64,000 nucleotides of DNA from Defluviitaleaceae bacterium (GTDB lineage Bacteria > Bacillota > Clostridia > Lachnospirales > WRAX01): contig WRAC01000004.1 of the NCBI GenBank assembly GCA_009780415.1, positions 10,512 to 74,511 of the forward strand, read 5' to 3'. This document shows positions 7,858 to 28,891 of this stretch, one piece after another. Both the position numbers and the translations under genes were made by a program. The notes beneath the pieces were generated by a model. That model saw nothing but the letters and a program-made list of their open reading frames with translations, searched no databases and was not told the origin of the DNA. Each line of letters begins with the position of its first letter. Position 1 is the stretch's first letter.

Positions 7858-8736
7858 CTATATATCCAGTAAACCAATCAGAGTTCCCATACCCCCGATT
7901 TTCCGTGCAAGCATTGCCGACAAATCCTTTGCGTGTTCGCCGGAGCTTTTCTCAAGAAGTGAGGAGATTTCACTAAGCGCCAGCCCTTCCTCGCGGATTG
8001 CCCATTTCAAGCCCTCGCGAAGATTTACCGATGTGTTTATCTGCGTATCGCGGATTTCAAATTCCTTGCCCCTGTGGTTTTTATAAAATGAATTAAATAC
8101 GCGGCTGTTTTTACGGCAAGAATCCGCAACCCCGGTCAGAATGTTTCTTGTGGCTCCATTGCTAACGGCGGCCAGATGCTCGTAAAACAACGCCGCGTTC
8201 CGTTCGTTTTGCACACATTCGCCAAGCAGCTTAATGTCCGCTTCGTCTGCCCCGGGCATTTGGCCGGACATGGCGGCACTTGGCGGAGCAGGCAAAGGCT
8301 TGGATTGGTTTGCCGGATTATTTTGAGCCGGGGCGCTTTGAGCCGGAGCATTTTGAGCCGGTATACTTTGAGCGGGTACATTTTGAGCGGGTGCGTTTTG
8401 AGCCGCACCGCCTTGGGGCATGTTTCCAAACAATGATTCCACCGGCTCAAATGTAATGCCCATTTCCTCCGGTGTAGCCATTCTCTGGCCATGCTGGCCG
8501 GGCTGGCCATGTTGGCCGGGCTGGCCTTGTTGGCCTTGCTGCATGAACTGACCCGGCATCATTTGCTGCTGGCCTTGATTCCTCATATTCATCATGTTTT
8601 GATTCTGGTTTTGGTTCCTATATGGCGAAGGCTGCCTCTGTTGCGCGTTATATCTGTTATGCATGTTATATCCGTTCTGTCTATTATAGCTTGTGTTATT
8701 ACTTCCGCGGCTATTCGCGCGATATCCCGCCGCCAT
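7858..8736 (-). CDS. Q/N/P-rich repeat protein with helical ferritin-like C-terminal domain (possible spore/coat-associated protein)
   Basis: 292 aa. The N-terminal ~160 aa is low complexity (QNQNQNMMNMRNQGQQQ, GQPGQHGQPGQHGQ, 6x AQN[AV]P-type pentapeptides). The C-terminal ~130 aa is ordered (..ECVQNERNAALFYEHLAAV..). The function call is tentative. Confidence 0.55.
   Translation of the reverse strand: MAAGYRANSRGSNNTSYNRQNGYNMHNRYNAQQRQPSPYRNQNQNQNMMNMRNQGQQQMMPGQFMQQGQQGQPGQHGQPGQHGQRMATPEEMGITFEPVESLFGNMPQGGAAQNAPAQNVPAQSIPAQNAPAQSAPAQNNPANQSKPLPAPPSAAMSGQMPGADEADIKLLGECVQNERNAALFYEHLAAVSNGATRNILTGVADSCRKNSRVFNSFYKNHRGKEFEIRDTQINTSVNLREGLKWAIREEGLALSEISSLLEKSSGEHAKDLSAMLARKIGGMGTLIGLLDI
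8321..8410. repeat. coding tandem repeat, 6 units of 15 nt
   Basis: The core TTGAGC[CG]G recurs at 8323, 8338, 8353, 8368, 8383 and 8398, an exact 15-nt period. It encodes the PAQN(A/V/I) pentapeptide repeats on the minus strand. Confidence 0.85.
8485..8538. repeat. coding tandem repeat, 3 units of 18 nt
   Basis: CTGGCCATGNTGGCCGGG repeated three times (third unit degenerate). It encodes the GQPGQH repeats on the minus strand. Confidence 0.8.
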
Positions 8737-12677: not shown

Positions 12678-15600
12678 CTAATTAATCATTTTATCAATCA
12701 ACAGCACAGCCTCGTCATACTCGCCGGCAAGCTTGTGTTGCAGAATTCGGCCTATATCCTTGCCGAAATCAGGGTCGCGCGCGAGGTTTTGTAAATTACC
12801 GGATGCCTCGTTTATAACAGGGGTATCGTAGATGTCCAGAGCTTCCTTTAGCTTGACAAGCTCGGATTTAAGCGCATCCATGTCAATGGGGCCCGCGTCG
12901 GCGGATTTATCTTTTTCACGTGAAAGCACATCGCTGATGTTTTGCAACAGCTCATCCAGCTCCGTCAGGAATTTTGGCGCGCCGGCATCAATGAAATCCA
13001 TGTCTCCGCGCAGTCCGGCCATCTCCAGTGTTTCGGCGAAAGCGGATAAATCTTCAGCTCCGATACTTGCGGACGCGCTTTTCAAGGCGTGAACATGCGT
13101 GGTAAATAACTTGATATCTTTATTTACTAAACAGCTCTTTATCTCTTTAAGCTTATCAAGCCCGTTGGCGCGGTATATGTCAAGGGTATCAAGATAACTG
13201 TCAGCCGTCCCGCCCGTCATAAAAATGCCTTTGCTTACGTTAACCCCGGCAATTTCAATACCTCTGCCGGCATCGGGTTTAGGTGCGGGGAAATATGTTT
13301 CGTTTGATGCTATTTTCTTTTCCCCCGATATCCATTTTTCTAAAACAGCGTTCAGCTTCACCGTGTCGATGGGTTTTGACAGAAAATCATTGAATCCGTT
13401 CTCCAGGAACATCTCCCTTGTGCCGGTTACGGCGTTGGCGGTCAGCGCTATAATCGGCACCTCCGCGTAATAGGGGTCGTCAGCCGCCATTCCCCTGATC
13501 CGCGCCACCGTCTCAATTCCGTCCATTTCAGGCATCATATGATCCATAAACACCAAATCATAACGGCCAGTCATCATGGCCTCAATAGCTTCCGCGCCGC
13601 CGGAGCATAAGTCTACCTGCATGTCGTACGGCTGCATAAGCCCCCTGGCTACGACCAGATTCATACTTATGTCGTCAACAATCAAAACCTTGGTGTCCGG
13701 CGACAAAAATCCCGTCTCCGGTTTTTTACTCCATGTCCGGTTATAGCCGTCGGACAGGCCGTTGAAAATCTGAGCGAGTGAAATGGAGAATACCGGCGTG
13801 GTAAGGACGCTTATATTATTTTCAGACACCGTCTCGCCAAATTCCGCCACAAGCACAATCACGGCGTCGGTTTCCACATTTTCGTATATTTTCTTAATGC
13901 TGCCATACAAAGGAGCGGCCACGAAAACGTAGGAATAATTATTACCGATTAATTCATTGTGGAATTCGGATACGGAAGAGACAACCTTGTGTTTTACGCC
14001 CAAATCGTCCATTGCGCGCGTTATGGAATTTACGCAGATTTTACGCCGCTCGAACAATAGGACGTTTTTATTCTCAATTTGATTTACCTCGGCTACTTTC
14101 CGGCTGCTGGCAATGCCTTGCGGTAAGGTAACGGTAAAAACCGTTCCTTTGCCGTATTCGGACTCAACATGAATAGTACCGTTCATCGTTTGAACAAAGC
14201 TGTATGTTATGGCAAGGCCCAGCCCCGTCCCCTCGTTATTTTTATTTTTATTCATATCGAACCGCGTAAACTCGTCAAAAAGCGTCGTAAGGTGCTCTTC
14301 CTTAATGCCTCTGCCGCTGTCCTCAACTTTTATTATCAAATTTAAGCTGTTCCCGTCAACAGGCTCTCCCGATACCGTAAAGTAAACATGCCCTTTCTCC
14401 GTATATTTCACGGCGTTGCTTAGAATATTCAACATAATCTGCCTGATTCTAACCATGTCGCCTTTCAGGATGCTGGGCATGCCGCAATCTATATCCACCG
14501 CTAACTGCAGCCGGGAGTCCAGGGCCTTCGTCTTTATTATATTAATTACGTCGTTGACCAGCGACGAAAGCGCGTATTCCTCGGAAAGGACATCCAGCGC
14601 CCCGCTTTCAATTTTCGATAAATCCAATATGTCGTTGATTATATCAAGGAGGTTTACGCCCGCTTGCTTAATGGTGGAGGTAAATTCCATAGCCGCGCCG
14701 GACATCTCCTCCCTCAGGGCAAGCTCCGCCATACCCAGGATCGCGTTCATGGGCGTGCGTATCTCGTGGCTCATCCGGGCAAGGAAATTGCTTTTGGCGC
14801 GGTTTGCCTGTTCCGCTTTTTCTTTCTTCGCAATGTCCGAAACATCGTTGGTCACAATTATATAGCCGCTTTTTTCACCGTTTTGGTCAAGGAGGTAATT
14901 CGCGGTGCCTTTGTAATATTGCCCGTTGCTTTCCCTGTATATTATCCCGGCCTCTCTGCCTTCGTGCAGCGCGGAAATGGGATCGTATTCCGAACCCGGC
15001 GGATATATGCTGACTTCGCCGTAAGGCATGCCCGCAACATCATCAAGCGTCTTGTTGATTATGGCTAAAGCCGTATTATTTATGTAAATAATTTTATGGT
15101 CAATATCAATGATTACCAGCAAGCCGCTCATGCTGTCCACTATGTTGTCCGCCATTTCGTCAAAGGAGCCGGCAAGGATGCCGAATTCGTCCTTGATGTC
15201 CGCGCGCAGCCGGAACTGCCGCTCCCCCGAACGGAACCGGGATATGCCGCTGAGCAGCAGGTTAATATTCCCCGTCAGATAAGACGACAGGAGAATAGCG
15301 ATCATAACCACCACCGCGAAAAGACCAACGGCTATTACGGCAAATTGGATTATATTCCGCGTCATGTTGGCGTTTATCGCGTTTGTGATTTTCTCCTCCA
15401 TGTAGTTGGCCGGCGCGGTGAAGTCCTCGATGCCCGCCCCGATGGTGACAAAGGCGAATCCGCGCCTATTGCCCTGAACATCGGGGTGGTACTGGCCCGT
15501 GTAGTACGGGATTGCTCCGGCGGTCGTCGGCTTTTCAATGCCGCTCCATAATATATAGAACGAACCCGAGCCGCCGTTTTCCGTAAGATTCATCCAGCCC

Positions 15601-17288
15601 GTACACTGAGGGGCATTATTCAGGTACCGTCCGTCAAGCCCGACAAACCCGGCGGCGGTAAGCGCTCTCGCCGGTGTCTTGTCGCGCGACTGGTAATCCA
15701 GGATATAGTTGCCTTCCGCGTCTCTTACGTCATTGCCGTCAAAGTCTTTTAACCTTCTTTCTCCGAATTGCGGCAATACCTCCCTGTTTTCGGCGTTTGC
15801 CGCGTAAAATTCACCCCAGCTCGTTCCGGCCGCAACATCGGGGCTGTCCCATTCCCACCAGTTTTTGCCGTTGTGCTTGATGCTGCTCAGGTTATATAAT
15901 TCCCATGTATAATTCTCCGCAAGCCAATCATTGCCGCCGCCCGAGTACCAATAAAAGAAAGGCGTATCATGCGCGGGCCGCGTATTGCCGTCCGCGTCAA
16001 GAATGGGAATGGTGCGGTTTGCTCCATCCCTTAAAAATCCGCCGTGCGCATAGTCCCTCTCAAGCGCTATAGTGCCTTCCAGCCACGGAACCTGCGGTTC
16101 GCCGGTAAGCGGGTTATATCCGACGATGGAATTATGCCGGGGATGGCATATGCTGCGGTTTTTATAGTCCCAAATGAAGGCATAGTTGCCGTCCTGGGGG
16201 CTTGGCAGCAGGGAATAACGCTCAAGCATGGGGTTTACGTAGTCCACAAATTCCATGATGTGATCATGGTTCAGAGCCATTGTAACATACCCGGTCCGCA
16301 CATCGTCCTCGTATACCGGAGTAGCCCACCGCACTATGCCCTCAAACCGCTGGCCGTGTGGGTTTTCCAAGCCCGCGAAGGCTTGCCGTCCGGCATATTC
16401 CATAAACTCATCCGCCGGCAGATTCCCTATCCTCACCAGTTCGGCGTGATTCGGATGCGCCGCGGGCACGTTTTTCAACACTTCCGGCGTAAACATCCCT
16501 ATGAAATTTGTTCCAACATACGCGCCGATAACATCCGACACATAAATTTCGCCGCGTTTCAATCCCTGCAGCCCGTCCCAATAATTCTCCGCCCTGATAT
16601 ATGTATTCGTCCCGTCGGCAACGTTCACCGCATCGGGGTTTAAGGGATAATGTATTTTATTTGAATTCGGATTGACATATTTAAAAACTTCATTTCCGTT
16701 TAGGTCAATAAACGTAATTTCATCATATAACGGCACATTTGCCTGATACTTCCCGAAAAATTCAGGCGGCCTGTTGCGGAAGGCGCTGCCGTACAGCTCA
16801 TCGTTGTTCTCCCTGTTCCGTGACATGTTATCCGCTTGGGCAAATTGGAAAGGCTCCTTCTCCACCCAGGACATACCGTCGTCAGAAATCACCCATTCGC
16901 CCGGCTGTACCAACCTGCCCAGCTTGTTATCGGAAAAAGCTTCAAAAGCCTGAAAACCGGCGGGAACAAGGCTTGCCAGCATCAAAATATCGTTGTCGCG
17001 CTGATAGAGGAAATCCGCCACGGACATAGCCAAATCGGTGGTCAGCCTTTCCTTGCTCTCCCTGGCGCCGTCATTTAACGCGTTTGTTGAATCTGTAACC
17101 GCAATATCCCGTAATATATTACCAAGTGATACGATCTGCGTAAGCGCGACAGCCGTGAGCAGAATAATGGGTATAGCCTTAGCCGCAAGGAATATTAAAA
17201 TCAACTTTGGGCGCAGCTTCAGGTTCATCCTGTTAAGCAGCCGCCCTAACCCCTTTGAATGCCATTCGGAAGAGTTTTTAATATTCAT
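12678..17288 (-). CDS. hybrid sensor histidine kinase/response regulator (Cache-like ectodomain-HAMP-PAS-HisKA-HATPase-pseudoREC-REC-HPt)
   Basis: Two TM segments flank a ~590-aa extracytoplasmic region. H-box SHEIRTPMN, G2 box GTGLGLAI, REC (LIVDDISMN..VFMDHMMPEMDG..ALTANA), HPt (HALKSASASIGA). I moved the start to Met20 (ATG 17288, AAGGGG RBS) because the first 19 ORF codons run into the repeat element. Confidence 0.9.
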   Translation of the reverse strand: MNIKNSSEWHSKGLGRLLNRMNLKLRPKLILIFLAAKAIPIILLTAVALTQIVSLGNILRDIAVTDSTNALNDGARESKERLTTDLAMSVADFLYQRDNDILMLASLVPAGFQAFEAFSDNKLGRLVQPGEWVISDDGMSWVEKEPFQFAQADNMSRNRENNDELYGSAFRNRPPEFFGKYQANVPLYDEITFIDLNGNEVFKYVNPNSNKIHYPLNPDAVNVADGTNTYIRAENYWDGLQGLKRGEIYVSDVIGAYVGTNFIGMFTPEVLKNVPAAHPNHAELVRIGNLPADEFMEYAGRQAFAGLENPHGQRFEGIVRWATPVYEDDVRTGYVTMALNHDHIMEFVDYVNPMLERYSLLPSPQDGNYAFIWDYKNRSICHPRHNSIVGYNPLTGEPQVPWLEGTIALERDYAHGGFLRDGANRTIPILDADGNTRPAHDTPFFYWYSGGGNDWLAENYTWELYNLSSIKHNGKNWWEWDSPDVAAGTSWGEFYAANAENREVLPQFGERRLKDFDGNDVRDAEGNYILDYQSRDKTPARALTAAGFVGLDGRYLNNAPQCTGWMNLTENGGSGSFYILWSGIEKPTTAGAIPYYTGQYHPDVQGNRRGFAFVTIGAGIEDFTAPANYMEEKITNAINANMTRNIIQFAVIAVGLFAVVVMIAILLSSYLTGNINLLLSGISRFRSGERQFRLRADIKDEFGILAGSFDEMADNIVDSMSGLLVIIDIDHKIIYINNTALAIINKTLDDVAGMPYGEVSIYPPGSEYDPISALHEGREAGIIYRESNGQYYKGTANYLLDQNGEKSGYIIVTNDVSDIAKKEKAEQANRAKSNFLARMSHEIRTPMNAILGMAELALREEMSGAAMEFTSTIKQAGVNLLDIINDILDLSKIESGALDVLSEEYALSSLVNDVINIIKTKALDSRLQLAVDIDCGMPSILKGDMVRIRQIMLNILSNAVKYTEKGHVYFTVSGEPVDGNSLNLIIKVEDSGRGIKEEHLTTLFDEFTRFDMNKNKNNEGTGLGLAITYSFVQTMNGTIHVESEYGKGTVFTVTLPQGIASSRKVAEVNQIENKNVLLFERRKICVNSITRAMDDLGVKHKVVSSVSEFHNELIGNNYSYVFVAAPLYGSIKKIYENVETDAVIVLVAEFGETVSENNISVLTTPVFSISLAQIFNGLSDGYNRTWSKKPETGFLSPDTKVLIVDDISMNLVVARGLMQPYDMQVDLCSGGAEAIEAMMTGRYDLVFMDHMMPEMDGIETVARIRGMAADDPYYAEVPIIALTANAVTGTREMFLENGFNDFLSKPIDTVKLNAVLEKWISGEKKIASNETYFPAPKPDAGRGIEIAGVNVSKGIFMTGGTADSYLDTLDIYRANGLDKLKEIKSCLVNKDIKLFTTHVHALKSASASIGAEDLSAFAETLEMAGLRGDMDFIDAGAPKFLTELDELLQNISDVLSREKDKSADAGPIDMDALKSELVKLKEALDIYDTPVINEASGNLQNLARDPDFGKDIGRILQHKLAGEYDEAVLLIDKMIN

Positions 17289-17322
17289 TCCTATGTAACC
17301 CCTTCGCCGCTTGTTTGTTGGA

Positions 17323-17445
17323 TAGGCTCTAATACCAAGTTGCAATCTAAATCACACTAACTCCGGACGGATGATCCAGTGCGCTCACGCTCAGGCCGGC
17401 TCATCCGCCCAGAGTAAGTGTTGCTTTGATTGCAACTTGGTATAA
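17323..17445. repeat. ~120-nt imperfect-palindrome (long hairpin) repeat element, copy 1
   Basis: Positions 17331-17445 match 27531-27645 at 113 of 115 positions by my reading (differences at 17367 and 17381). Outer stem is a 16-bp perfect pairing ATACCAAGTTGCAATC/GATTGCAACTTGGTAT. Inner stem is ~20 bp. Confidence 0.9.
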
Positions 17446-17529
17446 GGATAAGTATATCATACAATATATGACAAAGGTATAGAAAAAAAATCCTCCGAAA
17501 GTTTCACCAAATGTGCCTCTAAAATTATG

Positions 17530-17544
17530 TATAGTGTACAAGAG
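17530..17544. repeat. left arm of a 15-bp perfect inverted repeat
   Basis: TATAGTGTACAAGAG is the exact reverse complement of 17841-17855. Confidence 0.9.
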
Positions 17545-17576
17545 CGTTGACTAACCCTTATCTGCAGAACTAATAC

Positions 17577-17816
17577 CTATGCAACGCGTAATAATTCCAA
17601 TGCTTTTTTATACTTAGGGTCACAATCGCAGCCGCAGCTTCCGCATTCCGCGTCGGCTTTTTCTATAGCCGCGGCCAAGGCCGGTGTGGCCTCCTTTAAT
17701 TTGGCGCAGTCATCTTTAACGCTTAACCACTCTTTGGCGGGGCCATCCAGTACATCCCATCCCATTTCCGCAAATTCCTTAATGATATCCGTTAATTCCT
17801 GATTTTTACCTAACAT
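17577..17816 (-). CDS. small Cys-rich hypothetical protein (79 aa)
   Basis: I moved the start to the ATG at 17816, preceded by AGGAGG with a 7-nt spacer. The C-terminus carries a CGSCGCDCD cluster. I recognise no family. Confidence 0.6.
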   Translation of the reverse strand: MLGKNQELTDIIKEFAEMGWDVLDGPAKEWLSVKDDCAKLKEATPALAAAIEKADAECGSCGCDCDPKYKKALELLRVA

Positions 17817-17840
17817 TTTAAACCTCCTGTGTTTTAGTAA

Positions 17841-17855
17841 CTCTTGTACACTATA
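17841..17855. repeat. right arm of a 15-bp perfect inverted repeat
   Basis: CTCTTGTACACTATA lies between an extended -10-like TGTATAAT (minus strand, 17859-17866) and the RBS of the small gene. Confidence 0.9.
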
Positions 17856-17945
17856 GCGATTATACAAGCGTTAATATGACAATAGTATGTCTTATTATAA
17901 TCATAAAGCGATATTTAGCGCATAAAGAAAAGGTGCTGAAACTAC

Positions 17946-17974
17946 TTAACAATTTCTTGCGGATGAGGTATAAT
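17946..17974 (+). promoter_or_regulatory. sigma-A type promoter for the glycerol-3-phosphate dehydrogenase-like operon
   Basis: -35 TTAACA (17946-17951), 17-nt spacer, -10 TATAAT (17969-17974). This leaves a leader of about 85 nt. Confidence 0.5.
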
Positions 17975-18062
17975 ATGTTCGGATAATTATCGGCGTGTTA
18001 GGAAACCATTGATGTGTTGAACAAATGCGTATATATGTATAAAGAGGGGATTTTAGAAAAGA

Positions 18063-19511
18063 ATGGTTGACGTTGTAATAATAGGCTGCGGTATAGTTGG
18101 CGCGGCGGCGGCGTATGAGCTTTCGCGGTATAAATTGAACATTACCGTGCTTGAGCGTGAAAACGATGTCGCCATGGGATCCACCAAAGCCAACAGCGCC
18201 GTAATCCACGCGGGTTACGACCCTGAGCCGGGCAGTCTGATGGCGCGGCTGAATGCAGAAGGCGCAAGACTTGCCGATGAATTATGCGATAAGTTGGACA
18301 TTCCGCATAAGCATTGCGGCGCGCTGGTGCTGGCTTTTTCAAAGCGTGAAGAGCTTTTATTGGAACGTCTGTTGCAAAACGGTATAAAAAACGGCGTGCC
18401 GGATTTGAGAATCCTGCCCCGGGAGCTGGTTTTGGAAATGGAACCGAACCTCAGCGGGGAGGTTGCGGCAGCATTGCACGTCCCGTCCACAATGGTGGTC
18501 GATCCGTGGGAGTACACACTGGCGCTGGCCGAAACGGCGGTTAGAAACGGCGCCGAAATCCGGCTGGAATGTCCGGCGGAGGGGATTACGCGAATTCCGG
18601 GCGGCTACAGGATACATACCGGGAAAGGCGATGTTGAGGCACGCACGGTTATAAACGCGGCTGGGTTGTACGCGGATAAGATACATAACATGGTGTCGGA
18701 GCCCGCGTTTACCATCATGCCGGTTAAGGGCGAATATTACCTTTTAGATAAAAACGAGGGGGCGCGGATTTCTCAAGTCATTTTCCAATGCCCGACAGAA
18801 GAAGGCAAGGGTGTGCTGGTTGCGCCCACGGTACACGGAAATTTGATTGCCGGCCCCAATTATGTTCCGTCAAAGGATTGCGGAGATTTTGCTACTACCG
18901 CCGGCGGACTTGCCTTCGTGATGAAAACCGCCCGGAAATCGGTGCCGGAAATCAATTTTGACGCGAATATCCGTAATTTTGCCGGTAACCGTGCCATTTC
19001 GGATTATAATGACTTTATCATTTCGGAAGCTAAAGGCGCAAAAGGCTTTATCGACCTTGCGGGCATTAAATCACCGGGCCTTTCAGCCGCGCCCGCTATC
19101 GCTAAAATGGCCGCCGGGTTATTGACGGCAGCCGGGCTTCATCTAACCTTAAAAGATAATTTTGTTGACAAACGCAAACGTATACGCTTCCTGGAACTTA
19201 CGCCGGATGAAAGGAAAGCGCTTGTTGCCGCCGATCCCGCTTACGGGCAGGTTATTTGCCGCTGTGAAACGGTTACGGAGGGGGAGATTCGCGACGCGTT
19301 GCAATCACCCGTCCCGCCGCGTTCCATTGACGGCGTCAAGCGGCGGCGCGGCGCGGGCATGGGGCGGTGCCAGGGCGGTTTTTGCGGGCCGCGCGTGTTG
19401 GAGCTTCTGGCGGCGCATTACAAACGTCATTTTACCGAGGTGTTGCAGGATGGCGCGGGCAGTCATGTCCTTGTTTCGGAAACGAAAAGGAACCCCTTAT
19501 GCATGAATTGA
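18063..19511 (+). CDS. FAD-dependent oxidoreductase, glycerol-3-phosphate dehydrogenase/oxidase-like with BFD-type [2Fe-2S] domain
   Basis: 482 aa. Dinucleotide fold VVIIGCGIVGAAAAYEL. C-terminal Cys pattern ICRCETVTEGE..GRCQGGFC. Confidence 0.8.
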   Translation: MVDVVIIGCGIVGAAAAYELSRYKLNITVLERENDVAMGSTKANSAVIHAGYDPEPGSLMARLNAEGARLADELCDKLDIPHKHCGALVLAFSKREELLLERLLQNGIKNGVPDLRILPRELVLEMEPNLSGEVAAALHVPSTMVVDPWEYTLALAETAVRNGAEIRLECPAEGITRIPGGYRIHTGKGDVEARTVINAAGLYADKIHNMVSEPAFTIMPVKGEYYLLDKNEGARISQVIFQCPTEEGKGVLVAPTVHGNLIAGPNYVPSKDCGDFATTAGGLAFVMKTARKSVPEINFDANIRNFAGNRAISDYNDFIISEAKGAKGFIDLAGIKSPGLSAAPAIAKMAAGLLTAAGLHLTLKDNFVDKRKRIRFLELTPDERKALVAADPAYGQVICRCETVTEGEIRDALQSPVPPRSIDGVKRRRGAGMGRCQGGFCGPRVLELLAAHYKRHFTEVLQDGAGSHVLVSETKRNPLCMN

Positions 19512-20455
19512 TAGTCATCGGCGGAGGGCCCGCCGGGCTTGCGGCGGCGTACGGCGCATGGCGGGACGGGCTTCGGAAAATATTGATAATAGAGCGTGAC
19601 AAGGAACTTGGGGGAATCCTGAACCAATGTATCCATACCGGTTTCGGTTTGGAATACTTTAAGGAGGAGCTTACCGGTCCCGAGTACGCCGGGCGTTTTA
19701 TCAAGCTTTTGCAAACAACGCAAATTGAAACCGCTTTAGATACCATGGCGCTGAAGATAACGCGGTCACGAGAAGTCCACGCTTCCGGCAAGCAATTTGG
19801 ATATGCCGTACTGCCCGCCAAAAGCGTCATACTGGCTATGGGCTGCCGTGAACGCGCCCTTGGCAGTCTGGGTATCCCGGGCACAAGGCCCGCGGGTATT
19901 TTCACCGCGGGAACGGCCCAGCGGTATATAAATATCGAAGGTTTTATGCCGGGAAAGCGAGTTGTTATTTTGGGGAGCGGTGATGTCGGGCTTATCATGG
20001 CGCGGAGGATGACGCTGGAGGGCGCGGAGGTTTTGGCTTGTGTTGAAATAATGCCTAAACCCGGCGGGCTTTTAAGAAATGTCGTCCAATGCCTGCATGA
20101 TTTTAACATACCGCTTTACCTTTCACACACCATCACCGAAATACGCGGCAGCAAGCGGGTGGAACAAGCGGTTGTGAGTAAGGTTGACGAAAAGCGGCAG
20201 GCGGTTAAAGGGACGGGGTTTGCTGTTGATTGCGACACTATTTTGCTTTCGGCAGGGTTAATACCCGAAATTGAATTACCAACGGCAGCCGGTATTAAAA
20301 TAGACCCGAAAAATATCGAAACCTCTGCGCCCGGCGTGTTTATATGCGGGAACGCGCTCCGCGTCCACGATATTGTCGATAATGTGACAACGGAAGCCCT
20401 GCGGGCGGGAAGCGCGGCCGCGGCGTTTGTATTGTCGGAGAAAATCCATGACTAA
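19499..20455 (+). CDS. NAD(P)/FAD-dependent (pyridine nucleotide-disulfide type) oxidoreductase
   Basis: I moved the start to ATG 19499 (MHELIVIGGGPAGLAAAY), a 13-nt overlap with the upstream gene. A second GxGxxG is present: ILGSGDVGLIMA. Confidence 0.8.
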   Translation: MHELIVIGGGPAGLAAAYGAWRDGLRKILIIERDKELGGILNQCIHTGFGLEYFKEELTGPEYAGRFIKLLQTTQIETALDTMALKITRSREVHASGKQFGYAVLPAKSVILAMGCRERALGSLGIPGTRPAGIFTAGTAQRYINIEGFMPGKRVVILGSGDVGLIMARRMTLEGAEVLACVEIMPKPGGLLRNVVQCLHDFNIPLYLSHTITEIRGSKRVEQAVVSKVDEKRQAVKGTGFAVDCDTILLSAGLIPEIELPTAAGIKIDPKNIETSAPGVFICGNALRVHDIVDNVTTEALRAGSAAAAFVLSEKIHD

Positions 20456-20786
20456 CATTATATGTATAATCTGCCCTAAGGGCTGTAATCTAATTGTGAG
20501 TGAAAACGGCGGTACTATAGGCCATTCATGCGCGCGGGGGGAGATTTACGGACGCGAGGAGCGGATAAATCCCGTCCGGATTGTGACGTCCACTGTTAAA
20601 ATCTCCGGTGCGGTACACAGCCGGATACCGGTTAAAACTAAGACACATATTCCTAAACACTTAATTTCCGACGCCATGCGCCTTTTGGATGATGTGGAGC
20701 TTACCGCTCCGGTTGACGAAGGCTTTACGGTGATCGCGGATATTTGCGGCACCGGCATACCTTGGGTAACAACGCGCGGAATGTGA
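20448..20786 (+). CDS. DUF1667 domain protein
   Basis: I moved the start to ATG 20448 (MTNIICIICPKGCNL..), an 8-nt overlap with the upstream gene. This is the usual third member of this oxidoreductase trio in anaerobes. Confidence 0.7.
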   Translation: MTNIICIICPKGCNLIVSENGGTIGHSCARGEIYGREERINPVRIVTSTVKISGAVHSRIPVKTKTHIPKHLISDAMRLLDDVELTAPVDEGFTVIADICGTGIPWVTTRGM

Positions 20787-20789
20787 AAT

Positions 20790-22292
20790 TTATGCGGGCG
20801 GGACGCCCGCGCTCCCAGGGTCAGCCCAGCCAAGGCTTCTGCCGACAGCCTTTTTCCAGCCGTTCAGCAGTCTTTCGCGGGTTGTCTCCTCCATTTTGGG
20901 TTTAAATACAATATCACATCTCCATAATTGTTTCAGTTCATCCAAATCCTTCCAAAATCCGGCGGCAAGGCCGGCTAAATAAGCCGCGCCCAAAGCGGTC
21001 GTTTCCCGGATAACGGGCCGGCACACGGGCTTGTTCAGGATATCAGCCTGAAATTGCAATAAAAAAGCGTCGCGGCTTGCGCCGCCGTCTGCTTTTAATT
21101 CCCGGAGCGTTATTCCCGTGTCCCGCTGTATCGCGTCCGCCAGCTCGCAGCTCTGGTAGGCTATGGATTCCTGCGCCGCGCGGATTACATGCTCTTTTTT
21201 AGTGCCGCGGGTGATGCCGATTATCAAGCCTCGCGCGTACATATCCCAATACGGCGCGCCCAGCCCCGTGAAAGCGGGGACAAGGTATACCCCGCCCGTA
21301 TCGCTTACCTTTGACGCGTAGTATTCGGAGTCGCTGCTTTCGGCAAAAAAGCGCAGCTCGTCGCGTAACCATTGTATTACCGCTCCGCCGGTGAATACGC
21401 TGCCTTCCAGCGCGTAGCATGTTCTTCCGCCGATACCCGCGGCGATGGTGGTAATCAAGCCGTTTTTACTGACGCATGGGTTTTTACCCGTATTCATCAG
21501 AAGAAAACAGCCGGTGCCATAAGTATTCTTAGCTTCGCCCTCGTTAAAACAGCATTGGCCGAACAATGCGGCTTGCTGATCCCCCGCCGTGCCCGCGATA
21601 GGCACTTTTACGCCTTGAATCTCCGTATATCCGTATATTTCACTTGATGGGCGCGGCTCCGGCAGCATCGCCCTCGGAATATCCAACGCTTGCAGCAGGC
21701 GTTCGTCCCAATCCAGGGTCTTTATATCAAAAATCATTGTACGTGAAGCGTTTGTATAGTCCGTGACATGTATGCCGTTTGTCAGCTTCCATATAAGCCA
21801 GCTGTCAACCGTGCCGAACAGTATCTCGCCCCGTTTTGCGCGTTCGCGCGCTCCCGGCGTATTGTCCAGTATCCACTTTATCTTGGAACCGGAGAAATAC
21901 GCGTCAGGGACAAGACCCGTCGTTTCGCGTATGTATTCACCATGCTCCAGCGTAAGCTCCTCCACAATCCGCGCGGTACGGCGGCATTGCCACACAATAG
22001 CGCTGCAAATGGGAAAACCCGTATATTTGTCCCACACCACCGTTGTTTCCCGTTGGTTAGCAATTCCGACGGCGGCAATCTCCCCGGCGGAAACCCCTGT
22101 CCGCGCCAATACTTCCATCATTACCGCGTATTGTGACGAGTATATTTCCATAGGGTCATGCTCGACCCAGCCTTCGCGCGGATAAAACTGCGTCAATTCC
22201 TTTTGCGCGGCGCCGATTATTTTCTGCTCATGGTCAAAAAGAATCGCGCGCGAACTGGCGGTGCCCTGATCCAGCGCTAAGATATAAGGCAT
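20790..22292 (-). CDS. glpK: glycerol kinase
   Basis: 500 aa. N-terminus [18 protein letters not shown] and FGGY-kinase pattern throughout. Confidence 0.95.
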
Positions 22293-22356
22293 ATAATTCC
22301 CTCCGGCCTATCTCTTTCGCATTTCATCCGGATATTTAAGGATTTCAGAAAGGGGC

Positions 22357-23763
22357 CTATTCCGCAAACTGTCCGGAAAGCGCCGATATTGTAGCCTTTG
22401 CGTCACCATACAGCATCAGCGTATTCGGCATATAAAACAACTCGTTTTCGATACCGGAAAAACCGCGGCCTTTCCCGCGCTTCAGAACAAACACGGTTCT
22501 TGCTTCATAGGCCTTGATTATCGGCATTCCATATATGGGTGAGGATGTATCCGTTTCCGCGGCCGGGTTGACGACGTCGTTCGCGCCGATTATGATCGCC
22601 GCGTCCTGTACGGGCATTACCGGGTTCATTTCTTCCATGGTTTTCAACTGCTCATACGGGATATCCGCTTCCGCCAGCAGGACATTCATATGCCCCGGCA
22701 TACGCCCCGCGACGGGGTGTACGGCAAAGCTTACCTCCGCTCCGTTTGCCATAAGCTTTTCCGCCAGCTCCTTAACAACGTGCTGGGCCTGGGCAACAGC
22801 CATGCCGTAACCCGGTATAAACACTACGGAGCCGGCGGCCTCCAGCACGGGATAAGCGTCCTCGGCGGATACGGACTTGGGCTCGGAACCGGGGCCTTGC
22901 TTGGATGATGTTTGAACCGCGCCGAATCCGCCGAATAAAAGGTTCGCGATAGAACGGTTCATCGCCTTGCACATTATCAGCGTTAAAACCACGCCCGACG
23001 CGCCGACCAGCGCGCCCGACACTATCAGCGCCGTGTTGGAAATAATGAACCCCGCCGCGGCGACGGCTACTCCGGTAATGCTGTTTATTAAAGAAATAAT
23101 AACGGGCATATCGCCGCCGCCTATGGGTAAAACGAACGCAAGGCCAAATACAAGGGAAATTGCCGATAATATAAGGATTGCGGAAGCTTTAACAGAGGCT
23201 TCGACACCGGGCAGAATTATACATACCGATACGGCGGCAACTGCCAGGAAAAGAATCAAATTTATTAATTTTTGTCCCCTGAACACGATTGCGCGTCCCG
23301 TTATTTTTTCCGAGAGCTTGCCCCACGCAAGCATCGAGCCTGAAAAAGCCATCGCGCCGATAAAAATCGTTACGCATATTGCCGTAAGGCCGATAATATC
23401 ATGTCCGCCGGGGTTGTTATGAAACTGCGAAAACGCCACCAGCGCCGACGCCAGCCCGCCAAAACCGTTATACAGAGCCACCAGCTCGGGCATCCCGGTC
23501 ATCTTGACCTTCTTCGACCATATAAGCCCTATAACCGCGCCCGCGGCGATACCGACAAAACACCATAAAATACCGTTTTGCGCCCAGTCCGCGGAACTCC
23601 GGCTCTGAACCACATCGTTCTCAAAAAACACGGCGGCAGCCGCGATAAGCATACCAATGGCGGAGATCAGGTTCCCCTGACGCGCGGTTTGCGGTTTGGT
23701 CAGCTTCTTTATGCCCATAATAAACAATACGCAGGCTATGATATATGCAATATTAATAACCAT
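22357..23763 (-). CDS. pntB: NAD(P) transhydrogenase subunit beta
   Basis: 468 aa. Polytopic N-terminal half plus a soluble C-terminal dIII-like domain (..IPGYGMAVAQAQH..GANDVVNP..). Confidence 0.9.
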   Translation of the reverse strand: MVINIAYIIACVLFIMGIKKLTKPQTARQGNLISAIGMLIAAAAVFFENDVVQSRSSADWAQNGILWCFVGIAAGAVIGLIWSKKVKMTGMPELVALYNGFGGLASALVAFSQFHNNPGGHDIIGLTAICVTIFIGAMAFSGSMLAWGKLSEKITGRAIVFRGQKLINLILFLAVAAVSVCIILPGVEASVKASAILILSAISLVFGLAFVLPIGGGDMPVIISLINSITGVAVAAAGFIISNTALIVSGALVGASGVVLTLIMCKAMNRSIANLLFGGFGAVQTSSKQGPGSEPKSVSAEDAYPVLEAAGSVVFIPGYGMAVAQAQHVVKELAEKLMANGAEVSFAVHPVAGRMPGHMNVLLAEADIPYEQLKTMEEMNPVMPVQDAAIIIGANDVVNPAAETDTSSPIYGMPIIKAYEARTVFVLKRGKGRGFSGIENELFYMPNTLMLYGDAKATISALSGQFAE

Positions 23764-24056
23764 CAGTCTTTATTCTCCTTTTTCTTGCGGAACATGCCCA
23801 GCATCCGTTCCGTAACCATATACCCGCCCACCACGTTTATGGTTGCCAGTATAATGGCGATAAAGGATAACACCATGCCCAAGGAACCTCTGACAGTTAT
23901 TGCGCATACGACCAAAGCGCCTAAAACCGTTATGCCCGATATGGCGTTTGTCGCCGACATGAGGGGGGTGTGAAGCTGGGACGGCACCTTGGATATAAGC
24001 TCCCTGCCCAGAAACGCCGCAATTACGAAGATGAAGAGAAGTAGTATCTTATCCAT
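23763..24056 (-). CDS. pntAB: NAD(P) transhydrogenase subunit alpha, part 2 (membrane)
   Basis: 97 aa with three hydrophobic helices. Its stop overlaps the pntB start by 1 nt. Confidence 0.85.
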   Translation of the reverse strand: MDKILLLFIFVIAAFLGRELISKVPSQLHTPLMSATNAISGITVLGALVVCAITVRGSLGMVLSFIAIILATINVVGGYMVTERMLGMFRKKKENKD

Positions 24057-24073
24057 ATGTATCGCTCCTAGTT

Positions 24074-25213
24074 TTAGATAAACCGTTCATGCACAATCCG
24101 TCCATCCGCCGTAATCAGGCAGCCCTTCATTATTTCATCGGCAGCAGTCAGTTTTATTGATTTGCTTTCGGCATCCCAGAAATGCGTCAGGAACGCCGCT
24201 ATATTACCGGAGAACATATTTGAGGCGTCTTTAGGGATAAAACGCTCCAGGCTGTCCCCGCCGATAATCAGAACGCCATTGTCCAGCATAACATCGCCTT
24301 TGGGGTCCGAACCCTCAACGTTACCCCCTGTCCCAACCGCCATATCTATTATAACCGAACCCGGCTTCATGTCAGCCGTCATTTCCTTTGTCAGCAGAAC
24401 GGGGGCTTTGCGCCCGAAAACCTTCGCCGTCGTTATAACCACATCCGACTGCGCGCAAACCTTGGCCTGGGCTTTCCGCTGTATCTCAATCTGCTCCGGG
24501 GTAAGTTCCTTCGCGTAGCCCTGCTCCGTCTGCCCCATCTCTCCCAAATCGATTTTAACGAATTTCGCGCCCAAGGACTTTACCTGCTCCTCCACAACCG
24601 GCCTTGTGTCGAAAGCTTCAACCCTCGCGCCCAGACGCTTCGCCGTGGCAATGGCCTGCAAACCCGCGACGCCTACCCCTATAATAAAAAACCGCGCCGG
24701 AGAGATAGTGCCGGACGGCGTCATCATCATCGGCAGAATCTTCGGCAGTCTGGACGCGGCTAACACCACTGCGTAATACCCCGCCAGCGAAGCCTGCGAA
24801 CTCAGGATATCCATTTTCTGAGCCAGTGTCGTGCGGGGAATCATCTCAAGGCTCACAAGCCTAATACCGGCTTCGGCATATGCCTGTATCGCGGCCTTTT
24901 CGTTGAAGACATCAAAAGAGCTGATATGCAGCGTGTTTTTACGTATGCCGTTTATATCCTCAGGTTTGTTTATACGTACAATAATATCGGCAAACCCGTA
25001 CCCGGCTTCAAGGGACGGCATAACCGCGGCCCCCGCAGTTTCGTATTCACCGTCCGTATAACCGGTTACCGCCCCCGCTCCGCTCTGTACCGCGCATTCG
25101 TACCCCAGCGCGGTCAGAGCCTTTATATCCGCGGGAATAAGCGCAACCCGGGTCTCGCCTTTTTGAGTTTCCCTGCACAAAAAAACCTTGTTCATCGCTT
25201 CATCCGCTTTCAT
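24074..25213 (-). CDS. pntAA: NAD(P) transhydrogenase subunit alpha, part 1 (dI)
   Basis: 379 aa. Alanine-dehydrogenase/PNT fold with Rossmann motif IIGVGVAGLQAIATAKRLGA. The start may instead be Met7. Confidence 0.9.
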   Translation of the reverse strand: MKADEAMNKVFLCRETQKGETRVALIPADIKALTALGYECAVQSGAGAVTGYTDGEYETAGAAVMPSLEAGYGFADIIVRINKPEDINGIRKNTLHISSFDVFNEKAAIQAYAEAGIRLVSLEMIPRTTLAQKMDILSSQASLAGYYAVVLAASRLPKILPMMMTPSGTISPARFFIIGVGVAGLQAIATAKRLGARVEAFDTRPVVEEQVKSLGAKFVKIDLGEMGQTEQGYAKELTPEQIEIQRKAQAKVCAQSDVVITTAKVFGRKAPVLLTKEMTADMKPGSVIIDMAVGTGGNVEGSDPKGDVMLDNGVLIIGGDSLERFIPKDASNMFSGNIAAFLTHFWDAESKSIKLTAADEIMKGCLITADGRIVHERFI

Positions 25214-25218
25214 GAGTA

Positions 25219-26211
25219 TTATTCTTTAGCCAACGCCGAGTCGAACGCTATATTGGAAGCGCTGAAATTCAACCTTCTTATGAAGGCGCAGGCTTCCGTC
25301 GCGCCGAATACCCGCTCCATGCCCGAATCTTCCCATTCTACGGAAAGCGGCCCTTCGTAGCCGGCTTGGTTAAGCTCGCGTATAATGCCGTCAAAATCGA
25401 CGGCGCCATGCCCCGGCGACACAAAGTTCCAGCCCCGGCGCGTATTGCCGAACTCGATATGCGAGCCCAGAATACCGTTGCGCCCGTCAAGGTTCAGCTT
25501 AACGTCCTTAACATGCACATGGTAGATTTTTTCGGCAAAATCCCTGGCGAAAACAAGGGGGTCAACCATGTTCCACAAAAGGTGGCTCGGGTCGTAGTTA
25601 ATGCCGAGTGTCGGGCGGTCTTTAAATTTCCCGAATAATTTTTTGGTTGTCCAGTAATCGAAGGCTATTTCTGTGGGATGCACCTCCAGGGCGAATTTCA
25701 CGCCAACCTCGTCAAACACGTCAAAAATCGGCGTCCAAAGCCTTACAATCTCGTCAAAACCCTCCTCAACCATCGCTTCGGTTGTTTGCGGGAAGGAATA
25801 CCAGTATTTCCAAATGGGGCTGCCCATAAACCCCGTGACAACCTTGCAGCCCATTGCGGCGGCGGCTCTCGCCGTCATTTTTACTTCCTCTATGGCCCAT
25901 TTGCGGATTTCTTCCGGTTTTCCGGCCAGTGAGGCGGGCGCGAAGCCGTCCAGACGCGGATCCCATAGGTCGCCCACGCACTGTCCTGTCAGATGGCCGC
26001 TTATCGCCCAGCATTTCAAACCGTATTTCTCCAGAATTTCTTTGCGTCCGGCGACATACGCGGGATCGGAGGCCGCTTTATGCACGTCCATATGATCGCC
26101 CCATGTCGCCAGCTCCGCGCCGTCGTATCCCATGGAGCCAATCAATTTACACGCTTCTTCAAAAGGAAGATCGGCCCATTGGCCTGTGAACAAAGTTACG
26201 GGTCTTGGCAT
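25219..26211 (-). CDS. sugar phosphate isomerase/epimerase (xylose isomerase-like TIM barrel)
   Basis: The track ORF begins with TTG at 26229. The ATG at 26211 (MPRPVTLFTG..), preceded by GAAAGGATGGG, is the more likely start. The pattern is AP-endonuclease-2/xylose-isomerase-like. Confidence 0.75.
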   Translation of the reverse strand: MPRPVTLFTGQWADLPFEEACKLIGSMGYDGAELATWGDHMDVHKAASDPAYVAGRKEILEKYGLKCWAISGHLTGQCVGDLWDPRLDGFAPASLAGKPEEIRKWAIEEVKMTARAAAAMGCKVVTGFMGSPIWKYWYSFPQTTEAMVEEGFDEIVRLWTPIFDVFDEVGVKFALEVHPTEIAFDYWTTKKLFGKFKDRPTLGINYDPSHLLWNMVDPLVFARDFAEKIYHVHVKDVKLNLDGRNGILGSHIEFGNTRRGWNFVSPGHGAVDFDGIIRELNQAGYEGPLSVEWEDSGMERVFGATEACAFIRRLNFSASNIAFDSALAKE

Positions 26212-26235
26212 TTTAACCCATCCTTTCAAGCATTA

Positions 26236-27396
26236 TTAATCAAAATCCACCCAAATATTGCCTTTTGCTGAGCTTTCCACGCAGCGGTGAATGAACTTCA
26301 CACCGTTTAAGCCGTCCTCCAGACCGGGGTAATCGATGTCCTCCGGTTTTAAAACCCCTGCATTATGCTTGCAAACACAGTCTATGAAATTTGAATAGAT
26401 ATTTGCCATGGCCTCGAAATACCCCTCGGTATGGGCGGAGGGCAAACGGCTGTACCGCGCGGCTTCTGGCCTTATGGCGCTGTATCCGCGGCGCACGGTT
26501 TTGCGGATGCCGTCCTCACCGGTGATTGTAGCTTCCTCGGAGGTATAGCAGCCCCACTCAATTGCGCCTTTGGAACCGAATATGCGCACCTTCAGGTCGT
26601 TGTCGCAGCCAAGGGCAACCTGGCTGGCCCAGTATGCGCCCGAAGCCCCATTTTCATATTCTACCAGAACTACGCTGTTGTCGTCAAGGACGCGCCCGTG
26701 GACTATTTTGTCCATTTTTGCCAGCACGCGCTTGATTTTTAGCCCCGTCATCATGGCTACGGTATTCTCGATGTGGGTGCCGAGATCGCCCAGCGCGTTG
26801 CTTATCCCGGCTTCGGCGGGGTCTCTCCGCCACGCGCCCTGCTTGCCGCCGTCGCCGTCGTAGAGCCACCCCTGCGGGTATTCGCCCATCACCATGCGGA
26901 TATCCCCTATTTCCCCGGCCCTGATCAGCTCGCGCACATGTCTGAACGTGACGTTCCCGCTGTAAGAATATGTAACCGCGAAGAGCAGCCCCTTTTCCTC
27001 CGTGATGCGTATCAGCTCCTCGGCCTGGGCAATCTCACAGGCCAGGGGCTTGTCGCAGACTACGTGGATACCGGCTTCAAGGAACGCCTTGCATATGGCG
27101 AAGTGCGAGGTGTTCGTCGTAACCACAACGGCAAAGTCGATTTTGCCGCTTTCCGCCTTTGCCATTTCCTCATAGCTGTTATAAAGCCGCCCGGGGTCTA
27201 ATCCAAGCTTTCTTCCTGTTGTGAGGGTATTGTCCGGGTTCCGGGAAAAACAGCCCGTAACCAGCTCCGCCTTACCGTCAAGATTGATCGCCTTGCGGTG
27301 TACGCCGCCTATGAACGCTCCATCGCCGCCGCCAACCATGCCGTATTTCAAAACGCCCGCGGTAAAGCTCTCCGAAATAGTCGCCGAAATGCTCAA
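26236..27396 (-). CDS. Gfo/Idh/MocA family oxidoreductase
   Basis: 386 aa. N-terminal Rossmann fold (YGMVGGGDGAFIGGVH) and the family-typical ..VVCDKPLA.. segment. Confidence 0.85.
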   Translation of the reverse strand: MSISATISESFTAGVLKYGMVGGGDGAFIGGVHRKAINLDGKAELVTGCFSRNPDNTLTTGRKLGLDPGRLYNSYEEMAKAESGKIDFAVVVTTNTSHFAICKAFLEAGIHVVCDKPLACEIAQAEELIRITEEKGLLFAVTYSYSGNVTFRHVRELIRAGEIGDIRMVMGEYPQGWLYDGDGGKQGAWRRDPAEAGISNALGDLGTHIENTVAMMTGLKIKRVLAKMDKIVHGRVLDDNSVVLVEYENGASGAYWASQVALGCDNDLKVRIFGSKGAIEWGCYTSEEATITGEDGIRKTVRRGYSAIRPEAARYSRLPSAHTEGYFEAMANIYSNFIDCVCKHNAGVLKPEDIDYPGLEDGLNGVKFIHRCVESSAKGNIWVDFD

Positions 27397-27487
27397 AGCA
27401 TAACCTCATTTCAAATAATATAATTATACCACAAATATTTATGTTCTGCCAAAAGATCTTTTAATTATACCTTTAAAGAAGAGGCCA

Positions 27488-27516
27488 TTGCAGGAGCGGA
27501 TACGTTGTGATATAAT
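27488..27516 (+). promoter_or_regulatory. strong sigma-A type promoter (extended -10) of the lipoprotein/Sia-like operon
   Basis: -35 TTGCAG (27488-27493), 17-nt spacer ending in TGA, -10 TATAAT (27511-27516). The predicted transcription start falls at the left edge of repeat copy 2. Confidence 0.6.
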
Positions 27517-27522
27517 GGCTGG

Positions 27523-27645
27523 GTAGGCCTAATACCAAGTTGCAATCTAAATCACACTAACTCCGGGCGGATGATCCAGTACGCTCACGCTCAGGCCGGC
27601 TCATCCGCCCAGAGTAAGTGTTGCTTTGATTGCAACTTGGTATAA
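27523..27645. repeat. ~120-nt imperfect-palindrome (long hairpin) repeat element, copy 2
   Basis: Same orientation as copy 1, offset exactly 10,200 bp. Its inner stem pairs better than that of copy 1. Confidence 0.9.
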
Positions 27646-27685
27646 ACCGCGCATACCTCTCTTTGGCGCGGCTGGATTGGAGGCA

Positions 27686-28891
27686 ATGCAAATGAATCAT
27701 TTTCAAGGAAAGGCATGGGCTGCTTCCCGCCTTGCCGCCGTTTTTTTGACCATACTGCTTTTGTTAAGCGGCTGCGCGGCCCATGGCGGGTTCAAAACGG
27801 CTACGGCGGGCAACACCCCCGTCACCCGCGCCGGACAGCGCCACAGCTTCCCGCCTATCGTGGCAATAGATATAGGCGGCCCGGCCAGCGCGGCGCAATC
27901 CGACCTTAAAGTCGGGTTTATCTTCAACGGCAGGGTGGGCGACTTCGGCTTTACATACGCGCAAAACCAAGGCGCGCTTGCCCTTATCAGGGAGCTTGGA
28001 GTTGATGTGCTGACGAGGGAAATGGTTCCCCCCGACGAACAAAGCATGGACATTATGCAAGAGCTTATAGATGAAGGCTGCACCGTGATATTCTCGTGCA
28101 GCTTCGGTTTTATGGAATTTACGTACGCCATGGCGGAGAGGAACCCCGGCGTCCGCTTCTTCCACTGCTCCGGATATATGACAAGCGATAATATGTCAGC
28201 CTATTTCGGCAGGATGTACCAGATGCGGTACCTAACCGGCATCGTCGCGGGTCTTCGGACTGAAACAAACTTAATCGGCTACGTGGCGGCGCATCCCATA
28301 CCGGAGGTGCGCAGGGGCATTAACGCCTTCGCGCTGGGTGTGAAAAGCGTGAACCCGGACGCGGCGGTCAACGTTATTTGGACAAACTCGTGGCTGAACA
28401 CGGGTTTGGAGAGGGACCTCGCGCTGGAGCTGGTGCGGATAGGCTGTGACGTAATCGCCCAGCATCAGGACTCCCTGCTTCCCCAAATCGTCGCCGAAGA
28501 AGAGGGCATATGGGGAATAGGGTACAATTCCCCCATGGGCTTCTTTTCCCCGAACGCGTACCTGACCGGCGCCGTATGGAACTGGGGGCCGTATATGGTG
28601 GGCGAGGTCCGGAAGATAATCGACGGCACATGGGAAGCGTCGAATTATTGGGGCGGCCTTGAAACAGGCATTGTTATGCTTGAGGAACTGACGGAAAACG
28701 TCGCGCCCGGTACGCAGGAAGCCGTGGATGAGGCCATGCGGCGCATAATAAGCGGCTTTGACGTCTTTACCGGCCCGATATACGACAATATGGGCGGAAT
28801 ACGCGTCCCCGAAGGGCAAATCATGCCGGACAGCGAGAAGCTGTCAATTACTTGGTTTGTTGACAATGTAACGGAGGTGGGCGCCCCATGA
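27686..28891 (+). CDS. BMP-family (PnrA/Med-like) substrate-binding lipoprotein
   Basis: I moved the start to Met21/Met23 of the ORF (27686/27692, GGAGG RBS). Lipobox LLLLSGC. BMP-type pattern ..KVGFIFNGRVGDFGFTY..GYVAAHPIPEVRRGINAF... No ABC permease or ATPase gene is adjacent. Confidence 0.85.
   Translation: MQMNHFQGKAWAASRLAAVFLTILLLLSGCAAHGGFKTATAGNTPVTRAGQRHSFPPIVAIDIGGPASAAQSDLKVGFIFNGRVGDFGFTYAQNQGALALIRELGVDVLTREMVPPDEQSMDIMQELIDEGCTVIFSCSFGFMEFTYAMAERNPGVRFFHCSGYMTSDNMSAYFGRMYQMRYLTGIVAGLRTETNLIGYVAAHPIPEVRRGINAFALGVKSVNPDAAVNVIWTNSWLNTGLERDLALELVRIGCDVIAQHQDSLLPQIVAEEEGIWGIGYNSPMGFFSPNAYLTGAVWNWGPYMVGEVRKIIDGTWEASNYWGGLETGIVMLEELTENVAPGTQEAVDEAMRRIISGFDVFTGPIYDNMGGIRVPEGQIMPDSEKLSITWFVDNVTEVGAP

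Follow-up and report, generated by a model that had tools for sequence, protein, structure and literature searches.

Two nearly identical long hairpins lie in the window analysed here, a stretch of 64,000 nucleotides (C4:10512-74511) from a termite-gut MAG (2.53 Mb, 85 contigs, 100% complete), each of them next to sensory genes. Are they mobile DNA, or RNA structures that control the genes beside them? A first-pass annotation, made from the letters of the window, described a two-copy element and placed two readings side by side, a non-autonomous mobile element and a cis-regulatory hairpin shared by signalling genes. It proposed a survey of flanking target-site duplications and of any preference for 5′ leaders, together with an Rfam search and a test for covariation across copies, and held that many scattered copies with target-site duplications would mark an ordinary MITE. 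Copies were located by BLAST and with an nhmmer profile across the whole MAG. We conclude that the window hairpins are very probably copies of a 110-nt MITE, a gene-less DNA transposon present at ~30 intergenic sites; the grounds are that it forms a repeat family with terminal inverted repeats (TIRs) and target-site duplications (TSDs), that it is restricted to intergenic DNA without bias of orientation or function, and that MITEs of related bacteria carry the same ends.

The two hairpins of the window

Window positions 17329–17445 and 27529–27645 are direct repeats with 98% identity over 117 nt and a start-to-start spacing of exactly 10,200 bp, in agreement with the near-identical, same-orientation pair first described. 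The copies are distinguished by two mismatches, A/G at 17367/27567 and G/A at 17381/27581. Each forms a long imperfect hairpin whose previously proposed architecture is borne out: a 16-bp outer stem, an inner stem of ~20 bp and a 26-nt loop. The predicted RNA folds reach −57 to −71 kcal/mol on either strand, with z-scores of −8.8 to −12 against dinucleotide shuffles.

The element had been put at ~115–120 nt. The repeat is real, but alignment of the copies with their flanks fixes the ends of the biological unit at 110 nt, between TAA duplications, and shows perfect 15-nt TIRs, TACCAAGTTGCAATC...GATTGCAACTTGGTA. Copy 1 (17333–17442, + strand; full-length nhmmer match C4:27844-27953) is antisense to the kinase gene described below. 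Its left TIR (TACCAAGTTGCAATC, 17333–17347, +) is the perfect reverse complement of its right TIR (GATTGCAACTTGGTA, 17428–17442, +), and outside these lie the left TSD (TAA, 17330–17332) and the same triplet on the right (TAA, 17443–17445). Copy 2 (27533–27642, + strand), delimited by repeat comparison, genome search and unitig breaks, is sense to the downstream operon and is flanked by TAA at 27530–27532 and 27643–27645. Both belong to family 1 of the two families defined below. The arms of the element, ~46 nt long (46–49 nt paired), are complementary at 82–85%; both derive from a single transposon end, as inverted copies that have diverged, and this is sufficient to account for the hairpin. 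The 110-nt unit has no coding capacity, its sole open reading frames (ORFs) being spurious extensions of neighbouring genes.

The locus is present in termite-gut metagenomes. Across three of these, unitigs break at the element, where the summed depth is 10–40 times that of the flanks. Loose unitig ends begin at 17330–17332 and 27530–27532, which is the TSD/TIR junction, and thereby provide an independent mark of the repeat boundary. Logan contigs from three termite-gut metagenomes revealed no empty site or insertion polymorphism at four copies, a comparison that is weak because unitigs break at the repeat.

Beyond the left end of copy 1 lies a hybrid histidine kinase gene of 1,536 aa (12678–17288, − strand), with Pfam HAMP, PAS, HisKA, HATPase_c, Response_reg and Hpt domains; its ATG, at 17288, is 41 nt beyond the left TSD. 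On the 3′ side of copy 2 is an operon that begins with a gene for a Bmp/PnrA-like lipoprotein (27692–28891, + strand; PF02608, E 5e-51), whose ATG is 46 nt past the copy, TSD included, followed by genes for a 4HB_MCP-HAMP-SpoIIE phosphatase and a DUF6272 protein. The Pfam domains thus sustain the earlier description of a hybrid kinase and a lipoprotein operon as sensory neighbours. The same annotation had suspected that the element creates spurious N-terminal extensions, and this too is correct: a TTG start at 17345, inside copy 1, extends the kinase gene to an artefactual ORF at 12678–17345 (−), and a TTG start at 27626, inside copy 2, extends the lipoprotein gene to one at 27626–28891 (+).

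Both copies lie just downstream of predicted extended −10 boxes. Near copy 1, an extended −10-like box, TGaTATACT (17451–17459, − strand), was read by eye immediately upstream of the copy in the direction of the kinase gene, and a promoter consensus scan lists an overlapping TTGTCA-18-TATCCT site (17474→17445); either predicted site would place copy 1 inside the kinase 5′ leader. Upstream of copy 2 is a promoter-like site, also read by eye, TTGCAG-17 nt-TGaTATAAT (27488–27516, + strand), with a perfect extended −10 and a −35 that matches at 3/6 positions, for which reason the consensus scan does not list it. Transcription from this predicted promoter would be expected to start near 27523, 10 nt ahead of copy 2. 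No terminator-like site is predicted at either window copy, and the locus was found in no RNA-seq run. Given these predicted promoters, both copies are probably transcribed as 5′-leader hairpins, copy 2 in the sense and copy 1 in the antisense direction.

Elsewhere in the window, at 8312–8401, are six tandem 15-nt units (GCCGGnnnnnTTTGA-like) with 67–80% identity, which would make a 5-residue repeat if coding.

Copies across the genome and alternative readings

The description of a two-copy element holds inside the window only, as the genome contains ~30 copies of two families, spread over 22 contigs, with several copies each on contigs C2, C10, C27 and C34. Family 1 comprises 18 full-length copies, in both orientations and with 93–100% identity, and six derivatives that have kept their ends through internal deletion (two of 68 nt, three of 43–47 nt and one half copy). 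Family 2 has six members, three full (132–162 nt) and three miniature, with nearly the same ends, TACCAT[G/C]TTGCAATC, and a different interior. The family has TNA duplications and an interior unrelated to that of family 1, and in the 162-nt forms ~30 nt of this interior are duplicated in tandem; its full copies are at C1:92926-93057, C24:6411-6572 and C54:3099-3260, its miniatures at C7:27914-27955, C23:38027-38061 and C14:21712-21739. Exact matches to the TIR number 43 in this genome, against none for a reversed-pattern control, and the unpaired, solo TIRs on C21, C48 and C44 are remnants without an adjacent transposase.

A third, unrelated palindromic family of ~105 nt is also present, with the TIR GTCCATTGACC (C27:16568-16672, C5:969-1073, C18:44274-44378, C50:16441-16545, C6:25103-25214 and C54:12449-12554). 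Several of its copies have apparent TA flanks, which suggests an IS630/mariner-type MITE. One copy lies 137 nt from a family-1 copy, and another directly adjoins an IS630-like fragment with which C18 ends. A 114-nt bin between family-1 and family-3 copies (C27:16440-16553) has zero depth at an identity of at least 97% in the contigs of each of the three metagenomes, all of which cover C27 otherwise; this may reflect a strain difference or a mis-join between the two repeats.

The proposed search for flanking duplications gave a clear outcome, a perfect 3-bp TSD at 23 of the 28 copies that could be scored. Among the 23 flank pairs of the form TNA/TNA, the middle base is identical on the two sides in 22 (binomial P = 1e-12): TAA/TAA occurs 13 times, TGA/TGA five times, TTA/TTA three times and TCA/TCA once. 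Duplications of 4 or 5 bp are unsupported across the scored copies. The base before the duplication is C or T in 24/28 copies and the base after it G or A in 19/28, so that the target can be written Y|TNA|R. In 6/28 insertions (C15:39833, C30:7259, C24:6411, C54:3099, C34:24768 and C1:125082) the target was the stop codon of a gene, TAA or TGA, against 6.2% expected (P = 0.007); the duplication keeps the stop, and these cases fit tolerated insertion at Y|TNA|R sites. With the outward TTGGTA end taken as the putative −35 of a hybrid promoter, a −10-like hexamer is found 16–18 nt away in 13/56 flanks, where random intergenic DNA has a rate of 9.4% (P = 0.0017); in these flanks, however, such hexamers also occur at other offsets, in 2–12/56 cases.

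All 30 copies are intergenic, in a genome in which non-coding DNA makes up ~9.7% according to crude gene calls (90.3% coding). The gaps that hold the 18 full copies are tandem in 11 cases, divergent in four and convergent in three, and the orientation relative to an adjacent 5′ gene is sense nine times and antisense ten times. Among the neighbours are genes for an AI-2E transporter, a beta-lactamase-family protein, a GFO/IDH oxidoreductase, a Mur ligase, an Fpg/Nei-like glycosylase, CdaA, a PilZ protein, a GNAT protein, an HD protein and valyl-tRNA synthetase, a set that is no signalling regulon. Three crude ORFs, C32:24815-25420(−), C16:37524-38675(−) and C51:17038-17565(−), take their last codons and stop from a MITE copy; these may be MITE-altered C-termini or merely over-long ORF calls.

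Such positions bear on the reading of the hairpins as structured cis-regulatory RNAs, or as a small RNA gene, under selection for the control of signalling operons. It draws on the fact that each window copy follows a promoter-like site and precedes the start codon of a sensory gene or operon, on a fold that is very stable on both strands, and on two other copies upstream of the CdaA and PilZ-domain genes. Yet convergent gaps and the 3′ ends of genes hold copies as well, sense and antisense orientations are about equally frequent and the neighbours are mostly housekeeping or unrelated genes, so that the proposed shared hairpin for signalling genes is not supported. The Rfam search returned no family at the gathering threshold, the best scores of 27–28 bits (threshold 90 bits) being chance matches to eukaryotic miRNA precursor models. 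Among 17 distinct copies, compensatory changes were found in none of 44 predicted stem pairs and substitutions mostly break pairs, a comparison with little power at 98% identity. TIRs and TSDs account for the architecture without any RNA function, and an origin as regulatory RNA is very unlikely. We regard as similarly improbable a composite transposon, of which the two direct copies would be the ends, in a 10.2-kb MITE-flanked unit carrying a glycerol/redox gene block. The same-orientation copies do bracket one metabolic gene block (window 17333–27642), and it is known that a pair of MITEs can mobilise the DNA between its members (PMC10969869). The TAA duplications match at each copy, as they would after separate insertions, but all four flanks are TAA and this is uninformative; the genome holds no second copy of the block, metagenome contigs contain no joint across it, and with ~30 copies in 2.5 Mb two that lie 10 kb apart are unremarkable.

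A REP/BIME-like repeat spread by RAYT (Y1 transposase), or an IS200/IS605-derived palindrome-associated element, would share with the present repeat that it is intergenic, palindromic and multi-copy. REPs and IS200/IS605 derivatives lack TSDs and true TIRs, however, and the present repeat has true TIRs and a 3-bp TSD, in a genome with no match to Y1_Tnp (PF01797); the TSDs rule this reading out for practical purposes. The MITE reading, by contrast with these alternatives, is carried by the generic features of such elements: the present one is small and non-coding, it has 15-nt TIRs and a TSD of fixed length, and its many similar copies are dispersed. The first of the two readings originally offered, a non-autonomous mobile element, is thereby upheld, and the many scattered copies with TSDs are what had been named as the mark of an ordinary MITE.

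Related bacteria and the mobilising enzyme

Among 41 relatives, the full element is present in this genome alone. The exact TIR occurs 0–4 times per genome in the other 400 genomes of the order, and where it is paired it bounds elements of 40–190 nt whose interiors differ and whose flanks are often TNA. MITEs of this kind, with the TIR in common, are found in other genera of the family (six further genomes) and in three more families of the order; the relatives with same-ended MITEs are entered at NCBI as Defluviitaleaceae bacterium MAGs from termite guts. A TIR scan of genome contigs yielded five loci, four of them in Defluviitaleaceae MAGs. Since the same TIR bounds many interiors, a single transposase specificity has moved many distinct MITEs among these related gut bacteria.

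The absence of a transposase from the window, as first reported, is borne out for the five transposase families searched across the whole genome, none of which has a match on the contig of the window. DDE_Tnp_4 (PF13359), Y1_Tnp (PF01797) and DUF4096 (PF13340) have no match anywhere in the MAG. Matches to DDE_Tnp_1 (PF01609), DDE_Tnp_1_3 (PF13612) and DDE_3 (PF13358) are truncated or frameshifted remnants with other ends; they resemble IS5, IS982, IS1182, ISAs1 and IS630, and none has the MITE TIR. The PF01609 fragment on C50, for example, ends ...AGAACCTGTCTTCA, unlike the MITE TIR. The decayed remnants lie mostly at contig ends (C50:16800-17804, C5:79594-80625, C27:1-930, C26:36576-37205 and C6:19520-20272) and include an IS3-type orfA beside a truncated IS5-like DDE gene, a frameshifted IS982-like gene (DDE_Tnp_1_3), a frameshifted IS630-like gene (DDE_3), and ISAs1-like and IS1182-like fragments.

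An autonomous IS with the same ends, a usual though non-obligatory companion of a MITE, was found neither in the MAG nor in 465 related genomes, nor in genome, metagenome, viral or plasmid collections. A TIR-agnostic search of the MAG for TIR pairs 0.5–4 kb apart with a matching TNA duplication gave chance matches only. A scan for the TIR in 20 genomes of the family and 401 of the order, with 21 regions retrieved, gave nothing but MITEs and chance matches within genes. In metagenomes, a scan set up to leave out the MITE interior gave a single locus, already known, and no autonomous element; a scan of viral contigs returned eight unpaired TIR matches and no autonomous element, and a plasmid BLAST returned nothing. 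The smallest contig of the MAG is 2.77 kb, so that a collapsed multi-copy IS of ~1 kb would probably have been lost at binning, which makes absence from the MAG weak evidence.

The ends of bacterial IS5-family elements are typically G-rich and usually start with G, as against the TACC of the present element. The TNA target and duplication point to an IS5/PIF-Harbinger-type DDE transposase as the mobilising enzyme, a class taken solely from the TSD. A 3-bp duplication of the form T-N/W-A characterises the IS5/PIF-Harbinger (PHIS) DDE superfamily (PMC4482050).

On the MITE reading, a transposase encoded elsewhere would act in trans on the 110-nt element, binding its two 15-bp TIRs (TACCAAGTTGCAATC) and excising or copying it. 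Insertion at Y|TNA|R would proceed by 3-nt staggered cuts, a cutting geometry deduced from the duplications, and gap repair would then leave the 3-bp TNA duplication. The hairpin would be a by-product of diverged inverted transposon ends, with no selected RNA structure, and the window copies would be independent insertions at TAA sites that came by chance to lie in the leaders of the kinase gene and of the Bmp-SpoIIE-DUF6272 operon.

Two further ideas are speculative, and we consider them unlikely. Conserved TACC...GGTA ends, found in several families of termite-gut Clostridia on many unrelated MITE interiors and, in the collections searched, on no autonomous element, may mark an undescribed bacterial lineage of TNA-duplicating transposases. 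Separately, copies at the head of 5′ leaders, such as those of the hybrid kinase gene and the SiaA-like operon, may have been co-opted as RNase III-sensitive or 5′-end-stabilising hairpins that reset expression.

Comparison with known elements

The Correia elements of Neisseria (CREE/NEMIS) resemble the present element in being MITEs of ~100–150 nt whose inverted arms are long, whose intergenic copies run to tens and whose size varies through internal deletion. They duplicate TA (2 bp), and their TIRs appear unrelated to TACCAAGTTGCAATC. With a 3-bp TNA duplication rather than TA, the present element is not a member of the Correia/NEMIS group. The settings differ as well, Correia elements occurring in Proteobacteria in more than 100 copies, whereas the present element, with its 3-bp TNA TSD, belongs to a MAG of termite-gut Clostridia. 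As is predicted for the copies in the window, Correia elements are often inserted between promoter and start codon and are co-transcribed as hairpins; they can act as a source of promoters, IHF sites and RNase III cleavage sites (PMC10969869).

MITEs of the IS630/Tc1-mariner type, such as the pneumococcal RUP and the cyanobacterial Nezha, share with the present element their size, hairpin arms, intergenic location and movement in trans. These duplicate TA only, whereas the present element duplicates a variable middle base too (TAA, TTA, TCA and TGA). An IS630/Tc1-mariner derivation fails on this point, and the IS630-like genes of the MAG are decayed and without these ends.

In target and duplication the element resembles IS5/PIF-Harbinger (PHIS) transposons and their MITEs, for example the plant Tourist elements, which have a 3-bp T-N/W-A TSD and AT-rich targets, as does the present element. 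The MITEs are in both cases short, non-autonomous derivatives in which only the ends have been retained. The IS5 target, YTAR, resembles Y|TNA|R, and so does the target of NuwaII, C|TNA|G (PMC4482050). The present element differs in its TACC ends and in that no transposase of this class was found in association with its TIRs; of the two marks of PHIS membership, the 3-bp T-N/W-A TSD is present, and TIRs in common with a DDE_Tnp_1/DDE_Tnp_4 element were not found.

The TIR strings themselves were not found in the searchable literature. The element is a new family of a well-known kind, which behaves like the Correia, RUP and Tourist MITEs and is a member of no named family. As such it leaves the current understanding of MITEs unchallenged and its practical value is modest: it accounts for spurious N-terminal ORF extensions and assembly breaks in the MAG, serves as a marker repeat for a termite-gut lineage, and flags genes with a hairpin of about −60 kcal/mol in the leader or at the 3′ end. 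The mobilising transposase, if found, would add a bacterial group of TNA-duplicating IS elements with unusual ends, and the leader copies, if they alter expression, would give the Firmicutes a counterpart of the Correia elements.
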